In this document: positions 12,579 through 24,266 of the stretch, in pieces
Numbering within the stretch: position 1 is the stretch's first letter
Layout of the letters: each line of letters starts with the position of its first letter
Assembly: GCA_030765325.1 (NCBI GenBank)
Contig: JAVCCT010000055.1
Coordinates: 1 to 26,604 of the forward strand
Reading direction: 5' to 3'
DNA from: Candidatus Stygibacter frigidus
GTDB lineage: Bacteria > Cloacimonadota > Cloacimonadia > Cloacimonadales > TCS61
DNA: 26,604 nucleotides
The notes under the pieces: model-generated
The model's input: only the letters and a program-made list of their open reading frames with translations
What the model was told of the DNA's origin: nothing
Databases searched by the model: none
Position numbers and translations under genes: made by a program

Positions 12579-12667
12579 AATTACCTCCGTAACATCAATA
12601 TCAATTCTACAAATTTATTCCTGCAAATTGTACATCAGTAAAAACAATCGGTAGAGAGGCTAAACTC

Positions 12668-12707
12668 TATAAGACCTATAGGTCATATAAGTCCTATAGG
12701 TCTTATA
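12668..12707. repeat. Palindromic repeat with 9-nt periodicity
   Basis: TATAAGACCTATAGG (12668-12682) and CCTATAGGTCTTATA (12693-12707) form a perfect 15-bp inverted repeat. The units are TATAAGACC/TATAGGTCA/TATAAGTCC/TATAGGTCT. Confidence 0.8.
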
Positions 12708-12716
12708 AAAATAGAA

Positions 12717-21679: not shown

Positions 21680-21710
21680 AACCCTGGAGTATCTCCCGGG
21701 TTTACTTTTT
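21680..21710 (+). terminator. Terminator-like hairpin between thrS and kdsD
   Basis: AACCCTGGAG-TAT-CTCCCGGGTT (9 of 10 pairs) followed by TACTTTTT. Confidence 0.5.
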
Positions 21711-21720
21711 GGGAAAAATA

Positions 21721-22686
21721 ATGAATATACAGGAAACGATCAGACAGGAATTAAATCGTGAAGCTGACGCTGTCAAAAGGGCAGCCAAAAGCATTGGTGC
21801 AGAAGCAGAAAAAGCTGTGGATATTATCTATAATTGTACCGGGAAAATAGTGGTTACCGGCATGGGTAAAACAGGAATAATAGCCAGAAAGATTGCTGCC
21901 ACATTGGCGAGTACCGGTACAACAGCAATATATCTTCACCCGGCTGAAGGCATTCATGGTGATCTGGGTATGGTGCAAAAAGGTGATGTTGTGATTGCCA
22001 TTTCATATAGCGGGAATACCAGTGAAGTTATTCAGATAATTCCCTATCTGCATTTTAATAAAATCCCTATTATTGCTATCACGGGAAATCTTGATTCTGA
22101 GCTGGCAAAAAACTCTCAGGTAGTGCTCGATGGATCTGTACCTGCGGATTATGAACCTTTTGGACTGGTGCCCACTTGCAGTACTACAGTTGCCCTGGCA
22201 TTGGGCGATGCTTTGGCAGTAGCGCTTCTTCGTAAACGAAATTTCAATGAAGAGGATTTTGCCCGTTTTCATCCCGGGGGAACAATAGGCAGAAAATTGC
22301 TGCTGAAAACAGCTGACCTTATGCATCAGGGAGAAGATGTTCCTATTGTAGATTCACAAGCAGGACTGGATAAAGTTGTTCTGGAAATGACCAGTAAAAA
22401 GCTGGGCTGCACCTGCGTTATTGATGATAAAGGCAGGCTTTGCGGAATAGTGACAGATGGTGACCTTAGAAGGCTGATCAGCAAGGGTGTGAAAGAGCTG
22501 AAACAGATTGCAGCAGAATTCATGACACCTAGCCCGGCTACGATCAGTTCAGAAAAACTTGCCGTTGATGCTCTCTATCTGATGGAAGAGAAAAAGATCA
22601 CAGTGTTGCCGGTAGTAGATGGATCACTTGTTCCCGTAGGAATTATCCACATGCATGACCTTATCCAGGCAGGAGTAGTAGGGTAA
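21721..22686 (+). CDS. kdsD: Arabinose-5-phosphate isomerase (KpsF/GutQ family; SIS + 2 CBS)
   Basis: Motifs VVTGMGKTG, KIAATLASTGT, HPAEGIHGDLG, ISYSGNT, PTCSTT, GDALAVAL, FARFHPGG, GIVTDGDLRR and IHMHDL. ATG 21721 is preferred over TTG 21709. Confidence 0.92.
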   Translation: MNIQETIRQELNREADAVKRAAKSIGAEAEKAVDIIYNCTGKIVVTGMGKTGIIARKIAATLASTGTTAIYLHPAEGIHGDLGMVQKGDVVIAISYSGNTSEVIQIIPYLHFNKIPIIAITGNLDSELAKNSQVVLDGSVPADYEPFGLVPTCSTTVALALGDALAVALLRKRNFNEEDFARFHPGGTIGRKLLLKTADLMHQGEDVPIVDSQAGLDKVVLEMTSKKLGCTCVIDDKGRLCGIVTDGDLRRLISKGVKELKQIAAEFMTPSPATISSEKLAVDALYLMEEKKITVLPVVDGSLVPVGIIHMHDLIQAGVVG

Positions 22687-22713
22687 TCGTTGTAACCGGA
22701 GCATCCTTGCTCT

Positions 22714-22733
22714 GGGTAGGGGTAGGGGAAGGG
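22714..22733 (+). other. Canonical G-quadruplex-forming motif
   Basis: GGG-TA-GGGG-TA-GGGG-AA-GGG: four G-runs with 2-nt loops. Confidence 0.55.
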
Positions 22734-22734
22734 T

Positions 22735-22774
22735 AATGTAAAATGTAAAATGTAAAATGTAAAATAAAATGTAA
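22735..22774. repeat. 7-nt tandem repeat (AATGTAA)n
   Basis: Four perfect units at 22735-22762, one truncated unit (AATAA), and one perfect unit at 22768-22774. Confidence 0.85.
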
Positions 22775-22780
22775 GAATTA

Positions 22781-23355
22781 TTAGCAACGAACAAAACGAA
22801 CAAAACGAACTAAAAACAGCATTATTTTGCATTAGATCATTAATTGATTGTATAAAAACCTTAGAGAGGAGGAAGTTTGGATATAATCTATAAAGACAAA
22901 TATTATAGAATAAAACAGGCATGCATTGAAGTTCGAAAAGTTCTTGGGAATGGATTTCTGGAAAAGATTTATGAAAATGCATTAGTTGTTGAATTAGAGA
23001 AATCAGGATTCCTTGTTGAAACCCAAAAGAGATTAACCGTTAATTACAAAGGTCATGTAATTGGTGATTACATTGCAGACATCGTTGTTGATAACATTAT
23101 AATAATTGAGCTAAAAGCAGTTAATGAGATAATTGATTTACACAAAGCACAACTACTTAATAATTTGACAATCACAGGATACAAGCTGGGTATTTTGATA
23201 AATTTTCCTAACAATAAAGCCGGATTTAATATAGAAAGAATACCAAATCTAAGACTAATAAATACTTAACAAGTTCACAAAATCAGATAAGAATAACTCC
23301 TAAATTGGGTTTCTTACATTAAAAAGTTCGTTTTGTTCGTTTTGTTCGTTGCTAA
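22781..23355 (+). mobile_element. 575-bp cassette: GxxExxY gene between perfect 31-bp inverted repeats (putative mobile element)
   Basis: TTAGCAACGAACAAAACGAACAAAACGAACT (22781-22811) is the exact reverse complement of 23325-23355. The repeats are certain; mobility is inferred. Confidence 0.65.
22877..23269 (+). CDS. GxxExxY protein (PD-(D/E)XK nuclease-like fold)
   Basis: GFLEKIYENAL gives the G-x-x-E-x-x-Y motif, followed by YIADIVVD...IIELKAV, HKAQLLN and GILINF. TTG start after GAGGAGG. Confidence 0.9.
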   Translation: MDIIYKDKYYRIKQACIEVRKVLGNGFLEKIYENALVVELEKSGFLVETQKRLTVNYKGHVIGDYIADIVVDNIIIIELKAVNEIIDLHKAQLLNNLTITGYKLGILINFPNNKAGFNIERIPNLRLINT

Positions 23356-23368
23356 AACCTCTTCTTCT

Positions 23369-23689
23369 TCAATCTGTTACTTCATAATCTATCACCCTTC
23401 GTTCATAGCGTACTTCGCCCAGAAAATCTTTTACTTTTTGATGAGCTGGATGTTTTTGATAAATGTCTAAAGCCGTTTGATCTTCAAAAAGCATTGATAA
23501 GGCAAGATCACTGCGATCATTACCCTTTCTCATATTAATCCCGATCTTGATATCAATAATACCTTCAATTTCAGTTGCCATCTCATTTAGCATTTGCTGA
23601 GCAGTTTGCAGGTTCTGCTTCTTATCACCTTCTTTGGTCAATTCCAGAAATCTCCATAATACTATGTGCCTGATCATATAGCGCTTCAC
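23369..23689 (-). CDS. Dabb (stress-responsive alpha/beta barrel) protein
   Basis: MIRHIVLWRF...IEGIIDIKIG...FEDQTALDIYQKHPAHQKV...RRVIDYE. Confidence 0.85.
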   Translation of the reverse strand: MKRYMIRHIVLWRFLELTKEGDKKQNLQTAQQMLNEMATEIEGIIDIKIGINMRKGNDRSDLALSMLFEDQTALDIYQKHPAHQKVKDFLGEVRYERRVIDYEVTD

Positions 23690-23988
23690 ACGAAAAATTC
23701 TACCAGCCGCTGTTCACAACTGATCTTATCCATAAATTCATAAGCTTTTCTTACTGCTCGATGATTGTCAAATATCTCTATCGCTTCCCAGGAAGTGAAT
23801 TCTACAAAAATAGAAAAATCTGAACTCCAATCTAATCTGTTCTGATTTATTCCAGTTTCAAGCCTGGTTATCTGAGGAATGATGTTTTTGAGATTATCAA
23901 AGGCTTCCGCTGCCCACAACTGATTAGTGGATAGTGCATTTCCGCAGGCTTCTGGTTTTAATCTATACAACACAATTTTTCTCGTCAT
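23686..23988 (-). CDS. Divergent Dabb-like protein
   Basis: MTRKIVLYRL...IPQITRLETG...FTSWEAIEIFDNHRAV...RLVEF. ATG 23988 follows AAGGAG, and its stop overlaps the next start (GTGA). Confidence 0.65.
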   Translation of the reverse strand: MTRKIVLYRLKPEACGNALSTNQLWAAEAFDNLKNIIPQITRLETGINQNRLDWSSDFSIFVEFTSWEAIEIFDNHRAVRKAYEFMDKISCEQRLVEFFV

Positions 23989-24094
23989 TATGTCTCCTTG
24001 CAATATTGAGAAATCACAATTACGGATAATAAGTCAATATCTTTCCCGTAAAATTTATCATTACCTCGAAGTTAAAATGTTCACTGACTTAAAA

Positions 24095-24266
24095 AATGCC
24101 CTGGATGGGCATTACAATAATAGCCATGGGTTTCAACCTATGGTTTCAAAATTATATGAAGTCCCCACCCATCCCGTTTTCGGCTTCGCCGAAAACGGGA
24201 TGGGTGTGTTTTTTATAAATCCCATGGGTTGAAACCCATGGCTAGTTTAGTGTAACCCTTGCGGGT
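24095..24266. repeat. Composite palindromic element: inverted REP-like arms around a perfect 19-bp hairpin
   Basis: TAGCCATGGGTTTCAACCTATGG (24121-24143) matches the reverse complement of 24222-24244 at 22/23. The centre is CACCCATCCCGTTTTCGGC-TTC-GCCGAAAACGGGATGGGTG (24166-24206). Short outer hairpins lie at 24095-24113 and 24255-24266. Confidence 0.85.

Follow-up and report, generated by a model that had tools for sequence, protein, structure and literature searches.

A GxxExxY nuclease-fold gene between inverted arrays of 9-nt units at the kdsD-Dabb site of Candidatus Stygibacter frigidus, and the association of such arrays with the protein clade

Why should a single small gene, from a family to which no function has been assigned, lie between two perfect inverted repeats and be accompanied by nothing else? 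The question is raised by a locus in the window, by which we mean the whole stretch of 26,604 nt that was analysed, contig C74 of a 2.43-Mb MAG (G000) that is 68% complete; the sequencing runs that match the window are salt-lake metagenomes. The gene belongs to PF13366/TIGR04256 (GxxExxY), a very common family with no known function, and no paper was found on its function or its repeat context, those found to name it calling it 'unknown' or mentioning it in passing. In the reading that we favour, to which we give a probability of about 0.5, the GxxExxY protein would be a nuclease with a Cas4/RecB-like fold, bracketed by its own clade-specific arrays according to a logic like that of REP/RAYT or NTS/Ssn. 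This reading draws on the observed architecture of the cassette, on its rarity around other genes, on the covariation of arms with protein clade, on the excess of arms in most sampled genomes with the cognate clade and on the turnover at the site. The features of the locus are the following.

21709-22686, + strand: kdsD (arabinose-5-phosphate isomerase), the left host gene, with SIS and CBS domains (NF008141/TIGR00393).
22696-22715, + strand: hairpin with an 8-bp stem, CCGGAGCA-TCCT-TGCTCTGG, directly after the kdsD stop and present in the MFE fold.
22733-22774, + strand: (A)ATGTAA heptamer array, outer part of the left repeat module, read from the sequence.
22781-22811, + strand: left arm, TTAGC and three AACGAACAA-type units, read from the sequence.
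22827-22856, + strand: weak candidate promoter, TTGCAT-N18-TATAAA.
22877-23269, + strand: GxxExxY / PDDEXK_3 gene, 130 aa, TTG start (profile matches, fold prediction).
23162-23164, + strand: codon AAT (Asn96) at the position of the Tyr of QxxxY (alignment of relatives).
23325-23355, - strand: right arm, reverse-complementary to the left one without mismatch.
23369-23689, - strand: Dabb gene (stress-responsive A/B barrel), the right host gene, convergent (PF07876).
23686-24003, - strand: second Dabb gene, neighbour of the first.

As the preliminary description had it, the arms are exact reverse complements over 31 nt, each being composed of TTAGC followed by two full units and a partial one (AACGAACAA, AACGAACAA and AACGAACT), and they enclose the GxxExxY gene only, with 65 nt between the left arm and the gene start and 55 nt between the gene stop and the right arm. 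Indeed, the ORF at 22877-23269 is the sole substantial one between the arms, and the whole cassette measures about 0.6 kb. The inverted repeat reaches 39 nt at 92% (22773-22811 / 23325-23363), and the weaker extension of the right arm, up to position 23363, stops 5 nt short of the Dabb stop. The setting between kdsD and a convergent Dabb gene is borne out by the coordinates and the profile matches, and the ribosome-binding site that had been attributed to the gene is found as GGAGG just upstream of the TTG start. The promoter proposed at 22827-22856 holds in part: the sequence is there, but its first hexamer agrees with TTGACA at 3/6 positions and a consensus scan omits it. No target-site duplication is visible at the cassette ends, as had been noted earlier, the flanks AATTA and AACCT being different. 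Within the cassette no transposase domain was detected, TIGR04256 and PF13366 being the only family matches, and in the source genome neither an excision junction nor near-identical copies of the cassette at separate loci were seen. A search of Rfam returned a chance snoRNA match as its best result (E = 0.65).

Brackets of this strength are rare in the genome. Inverted repeats of comparable strength were absent from shuffled contigs, and among the 1,295 ORFs of the source genome that have at least 100 aa and full flanks, the cassette ranks first with a flank-IR score of 31.5 (99th percentile 14.5); a score of at least 20 is found for 0.15% of these ORFs, and a score of 16 is reached by less than 1% of other ORFs. 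The 16-nt core of the arms matches the window 4 times, against 0.01 matches expected. Further along the window, positions 24118-24245 hold a nested palindromic element of about 128 nt, which has the appearance of an unrelated MITE-like repeat. Its outer arms are TAGCCATGGGTTTCAACC.ATGG, a 13-bp hairpin at 24172-24200 lies inside them, and inverted repeats similar to the outer arms are present on contigs C44 and C120.

The protein encoded between the arms reaches 128.3 bits against TIGR04256 (cut-off 35) and 126 bits against PF13366 (cut-off 22), whereas a profile search found no match to a GIY-YIG domain and a sequence search of the PDB found no match at all. Its AlphaFold2 model has a pLDDT of 94.4, and the best PDB neighbours given by Foldseek are Cas4 SSO0001 (4ic1, E = 1e-4), lambda exonuclease, LHK-Exo and MGME1, with a TMq of about 0.56. 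Ten residues (G24, G26, E29, Y32, D68, E78, K80, Q92, N109 and F110) do not vary, either among 72 sequences or in a 60-sequence alignment, and the window protein keeps G24, G26, E29, Y32, D68, E78, K80 and Q92. The conserved residues match D...ExK...QxxxY, the signature by which RecB-family nucleases are recognised. As modelled, the protein is a minimal PD-(D/E)XK core of about 125 aa, of the Cas4/RecB/lambda-exonuclease type. It shares with Cas4 and RecB the core fold and, but for Tyr96, the D...ExK...QxxxY motifs, and differs from them by its size, by the absence of an Fe-S cluster module and of CRISPR or recombination partners nearby, and by a TM-score of about 0.56. One deviation concerns the motif itself: Tyr96 is present in 71 of the 72 aligned sequences, the window copy alone having Asn96, and the closest relatives, the metagenome contig L184 and the congener G003, have TAT (Tyr) at codon 96. 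Judging from the alignment, the Y96N change may denote a weakened or inactivated enzyme, or an error in the MAG consensus.

The preliminary description had overlooked that the arms belong to a genome-wide and clade-wide repeat family, and that the left module includes the heptamers at 22733-22774. With up to two mismatches, the 16-nt arm core has 33 matches in the source genome vs 3 for the reversed control, and these group into about 25 clusters of an AGC-(AACGAACAA)n module. In aligned copies, the full module comprises, from its outer side, (A)ATGTAA heptamers, a T-rich linker, AGC and two to three 9-nt units ending in ACGAACT, and the left side of the window cassette carries all of it. Gene-less arms, whose possible existence had been raised earlier, do occur as hairpins with cassette-type arms on contigs C215, C75 and C44, their loops of 42-140 nt being unrelated to the cassette interior. 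A sister family, built of CGCGAACAA units, counts 15 copies. Many 9-mer modules have a heptamer array of the (A)ATGTAA type at their outer end and, since 7 mod 3 = 1, three repeats would offer TAA in all three frames of the same strand; entering translation would thus meet a TAA in any frame, so that insertion of an element beside gene ends would be tolerated.

The question whether periodic inverted repeats accompany the family in general had been raised at the outset, and such repeats do rise above controls in two samples. The two other GxxExxY genes of the source genome (contigs C352 and C147) sit between inverted arrays with a periodicity of about 9 nt, made of different units, CGCGAAA/CGCTAAA and CAGGATT. 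GxxExxY genes are present in 29 of 41 genomes of the order, in 1-10 copies with fragments included, and a flank inverted repeat scoring at least 3 points over the best of 20 shuffles was found at 35 of the 69 Cloacimonadales loci with usable flanks; most of the remaining loci have a common unit on both sides. Similarly, at 27 of 71 loci taken from other phyla (among them Planctomycetota, Acidobacteriota, Chloroflexota, Bacteroidota, Nitrospirota, Desulfobacterota, Patescibacteria and one Pacearchaeota archaeon) the bracket scores above the 99th percentile of a control with mismatched flanks, nearly all of them with CRCNGAT-like periodic units, and by eye about 60 of the 71 display inverted arrays of 8-10-nt units of CRCNGAT form. 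One or two letters of each unit are variable, and these often disagree from one arm to the other; the header on the outer side and the core of the unit are kept, so that the conserved thing appears to be the motif and not the pairing, as judged by inspection, a column-wise comparison being confounded by alignment selection. The window cassette is one of a widespread class, in which a GxxExxY gene of about 125 aa lies between inward-facing arrays, usually of three 8-10-nt units, whose sequence is specific to the clade; arrays of the same kind are dispersed over the genome as gene-less hairpins and as solo arms.

Clusters of such genes also exist. The complete 2.25-Mb genome G027 has 10 GxxExxY matches, fragments included, within 42 kb (C1:786000-828500; loci L040, L065, L069, L071 and L094), and two near-identical tandem cassettes with a common truncated internal arm are wedged there between two host genes.

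Specificity for the clade is apparent from a tree of 72 proteins, in which the window protein falls in a clade of 10 members (SH-aLRT 99), the others coming from G001, G002, G003, G010, G011, G013, G016, G029 and G033. All six clearly labelled CGAACAA-armed genes are in this clade, and units of this type were seen by eye at three further members of it. The covariation between arm and protein that had been envisaged earlier was recovered, the tree requiring 23 changes of arm class vs at least 34 in each of 300 shuffles of the labels, with the reservation that related genomes are non-independent samples for covariation and co-occurrence alike. Beyond the gene and its TTAGC-(NNCGAACAA)n arrays, the flanks of the ten clade loci are unalignable and the loci are thus not syntenic; arms persist at coding identities as low as 67-70%. 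For repeated 6-mers of the flanks, the Jaccard index is 0.017 at protein identities below 35% and climbs to 0.137 at identities of 65% or more, and the correlation between Jaccard index and identity was reached by 0 of 1000 permutations. In G002, the paralogue has AGC-CGCGAACAA arms, and the matching variant is the solo array at the kdsD site of that genome.

In most of the sampled genomes, the arms are also more abundant where the cognate clade is present. Eight genomes with a clade gene have 29-151 matches to the arm core, namely G000 with 33 (reversed control 3), G001 with 37 (3), G002 with 68 (4), G003 with 29 (3), G010 with 31 (8), G011 with 101 (10), G016 with 151 (23) and G029 with 39 (15), whereas most genomes in which no clade gene was found have 10 or fewer, the congener G004, which has no intact gene, having 2 (reversed control 2). 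Some genomes depart from this pattern: 41 matches were counted in G021, whose single GxxExxY gene belongs to another clade, G014 and G022 have 32 and 15 matches, and G013 and G033 possess the clade gene with few matches. Since the genomes are related and partly incomplete, and since not every GxxExxY match was placed on the tree, this co-occurrence is to be read as an association and not as a test.

The interval between kdsD and Dabb varies widely among relatives. G004 has an empty site, with about 60 nt between the stop codons and no repeats. G002 and the metagenome contig L185, whose kdsD 3' ends are 85% and 88% identical to that of the window, have no gene and carry heptamers (ATGTAA) and a solo AGC-CGCGAACAA-ACCAAACAA array, which is at the place of the left arm. 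L184 has the cassette in the window orientation, with Tyr96 and with arms that match at 27/29 positions. In G003 the gene is inverted between similar arms, with further arm pairs and then the contig end, and G001 holds an unrelated insert of 1.3 kb. Empty sites, which had been suggested as informative, are thus represented by G004, but no precise empty site was found, as the gene-less G002 and L185 carry other arrays. Between L184 and the window, identity is 93.6% for the GxxExxY gene vs 86.0% for kdsD and 86.7% for Dabb, and between G003 and the window it is 86% for the gene vs 75% for kdsD (dS 0.69 vs 1.41); the gene is less diverged than the flanking genes in both cassette-bearing relatives. 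Because the presence of the cassette is uncoupled from the similarity of the flanks, and because the cassette looks younger, it appears to have been gained, exchanged or lost after the lineages split.

The flipped copy gives some indication of how this may proceed. In both L184 and G003, the arm beside kdsD is an AACTAACAA variant and the arm away from kdsD has a GAC unit, despite the opposite orientation of the gene. Arm variants that stay fixed while the gene flips are a hint, at two diagnostic positions, of inversion by recombination within the arms. As the diagnostic positions are two in number and the interior non-coding parts differ in length, a simple in-situ inversion between G003 and the others was not adopted. 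The preliminary description had taken the perfect identity of the arms as a sign of selection, a claim that finds no support in the 27/29 match in L184, which has the same orientation; because of that match, arm perfection is peculiar to the window lineage. Most simply, the perfect 31-nt arms would reflect recent homogenisation, for example conversion during recombination between arms, which would also account for the flipped copy in the congener.

The earlier suggestion of a self-mobilising or hitch-hiking element finds support in a gene-arm unit that comes and goes and in an arm type tied to the clade; since the unit varies at the site and its arm type follows the clade, a hitch-hiking or mobile element linked to its arms fits. 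Self-mobilisation is not helped by the absence of a duplication and of near-identical copies. An autonomous element would go further, with the nuclease as a transposase or homing enzyme cutting the outer ends of the arms and the hairpins as its non-autonomous derivatives. Presence, absence and inversion at one site, with a gene less diverged than its flanks, are what such an element would produce, and the clade with its cognate arms at unalignable loci in different genera, the tandem near-identical cassettes of G027 and a TIR with several sub-terminal units, which resembles multi-site transposon ends, point the same way. We nevertheless consider it unlikely: target duplication and precise empty site are both lacking (the gene-less relatives holding other arrays), identical copies were not found at separate loci of the source genome, a PD-(D/E)XK nuclease alone is without known strand-transfer activity, and the loops of the gene-less hairpins share nothing with the cassette interior.

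According to a second alternative, there would be no functional link, the arrays being generic intergenic furniture (terminators, insulators or host-factor sites) between which small accessory genes accumulate or survive. The source genome is rich in arrays, with 62 of period 9 and 60 of period 7 at a strict threshold, vs 1 and 0 in shuffles, and 143 of period 9 when the threshold is loosened, of which 68 fall within long ORFs; many of these 62 to 143 arrays are far from any GxxExxY gene. Period-9 unit families include ATGGAC, CTATAAGAC, CACAGAG, CACGGAT and GCGGAC, and they far outnumber the GxxExxY genes, of which this genome, 68% complete, has yielded three. The window itself has an intergenic period-9 array of CTATAAGAC/CTATAGGTC units at 12667-12708, one of about 12 such arrays in the genome. 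Such repeats break the assembly, as many contigs end in them. Arrays of ATGGAC, GTGGAC or GCGGAC units on contigs C110, C111, C162, C249 and C385 often adjoin TTGACA-like boxes, some inside hairpin loops, and by their sequence may double as, or overlap, promoter regions.

The bracket is found around another type of protein as well. Two genes of about 200 aa that encode four-helix-bundle proteins (TIGR02436, the 23S IVS protein family) lie in G000 between GTGGAC/GCGGAC 9-nt units arranged as hairpins or arrays (L102, C72:1430-2240; L103, C249:4680-5450), and a third one, on C257, has direct arrays of AAGAATT type; the bracket design is that of the GxxExxY cassettes, and the protein is unrelated.

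Arrays distant from the gene, arrays beside promoter boxes, bracketed four-helix-bundle genes and the G021 arms without a clade gene are all as expected if the arrays were mere furniture. We judge this to be quite unlikely, however, as such brackets are found around less than 1% of other ORFs, the type of arm goes with the clade of the protein in different genera and at different loci, the bracket recurs around GxxExxY genes in many phyla and in very different genomes, and the arm family is nearly absent from the congener without an intact gene.

A third alternative, which the preliminary description had proposed as RNA excision, operates at the RNA level: as for rRNA intervening sequences, the arms would form a helix on a read-through RNA that RNase III would cut, the ORF being released or silenced and the flanking messages separated. 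The MFE fold computed for 22690-23400 (z = -3.8) does contain the helix between the arms, and the bracket is common to GxxExxY genes and to the four-helix-bundle genes of the 23S IVS protein family. Against this, the gene and kdsD are on opposite strands in G003. Most relatives have imperfect arms, in which mismatches at the variable positions are uncompensated and the unit motif is kept, and there are solo arms and direct-repeat arrangements. The hairpin after the kdsD stop (22696-22715) also stands against it; this hairpin has near-copies in other intergenic regions (contigs C29, C133 and C33), is found after kdsD in G002 and L184 too, and probably represents a dispersed, terminator-like hairpin that lacks a T-run. 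Since the flanking genes converge, there is moreover no operon for an RNA-level element to ride, and the proposal, weak in view of these features, is in our opinion very unlikely. An integron cassette and a homing endonuclease were dropped, there being no attC or integrase context for the former and no conserved target gene for the latter.

In the favoured reading, a GxxExxY nuclease acting on its own clade-specific arrays, the enzyme would bind the unit arrays, probably with one subunit per unit, the variable letters being left unread. It would then nick or cut at or near the array, in duplex, cruciform or single-stranded hairpin DNA, and the cut could favour recombination, spreading or upkeep of the repeats, and hence of the gene itself; the window copy may be catalytically weakened by its Y96N change. 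Several observations count against such a partnership, namely the many unit families vs three genes, the bracketed four-helix-bundle genes and exceptions of the G021 type. Because the unit families exceed the genes and four-helix-bundle genes are bracketed too, another factor could act on the arrays, and the covariation is equally expected if the arms ride as linked sequences in a unit that something else moves.

Among known systems, REP/RAYT in the REPtron arrangement offers a close parallel, with a single-copy nuclease-type gene between inverted copies of a dispersed repeat, tens to hundreds of gene-less hairpins and a repeat type that co-varies with the clade of the gene. RAYT is however a Y1/HUH transposase, so that the mechanism of a PD-(D/E)XK protein would differ, and REPs are single palindromes whereas the cassette arms are arrays of three 9-nt units. 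Similarly, 42% of Ssn homologues are flanked by NTS/SRM on both sides, 81% of the genomes with more than 200 NTS/SRM repeats hold an Ssn gene, and the Ssn GIY-YIG nuclease cleaves single-stranded DNA site-specifically and modulates transformation (PMC11893778). A small nuclease gene flanked by dispersed repeats is common to both, and the logic of a gene with its cognate repeat matches; Ssn has the GIY-YIG fold, the SRM is a conserved hairpin and not a unit array, and GxxExxY is known here from sequence and predicted fold. The intervening sequences of 23S rRNA also contain a small ORF (four-helix-bundle / PF05635) inside a long inverted-repeat stem, but the cassette is outside rRNA, between convergent protein genes, and neither its orientation nor its arm pairing is conserved. 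With IS and MITEs (Tn7, Mu and IS21-like ends), it has in common TIRs made of several sub-sites, short gene-less derivatives and insertion polymorphism; it differs by its size of about 0.6 kb and by having no recognised transposase or target-site duplication. As each of these systems lacks a defining feature here, the cassette falls outside REP/RAYT, Ssn, IS/MITE and rRNA intervening sequences.

A broader proposal can be put forward tentatively, as a possibility that we hold to be doubtful. GxxExxY proteins might be enzymes cognate to a very large class of hairpin repeats, as yet without a name, that are made of unit arrays and occur in bacteria and some archaea. This would be a third independent nuclease-repeat symbiosis after RAYT/REP and Ssn/NTS, in which the nuclease would read short tandem units and drive the spread, inversion and loss of repeats and small cassettes, the ORF-bearing rRNA intervening sequences being one special case. 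If members of this family are site-specific nucleases, with targets spelled out beside each gene as short tandem units, a large share of the unexplained intergenic hairpin repeats of many phyla would have an origin, and the breaks of MAG assemblies at these repeats would be explained. Each cassette would then state its own recognition sequence, so that the family would amount to a natural library of small, programmable-looking nucleases. The kdsD-Dabb locus is in this respect a natural experiment, in which one site is found in five states among close relatives, an inversion included.
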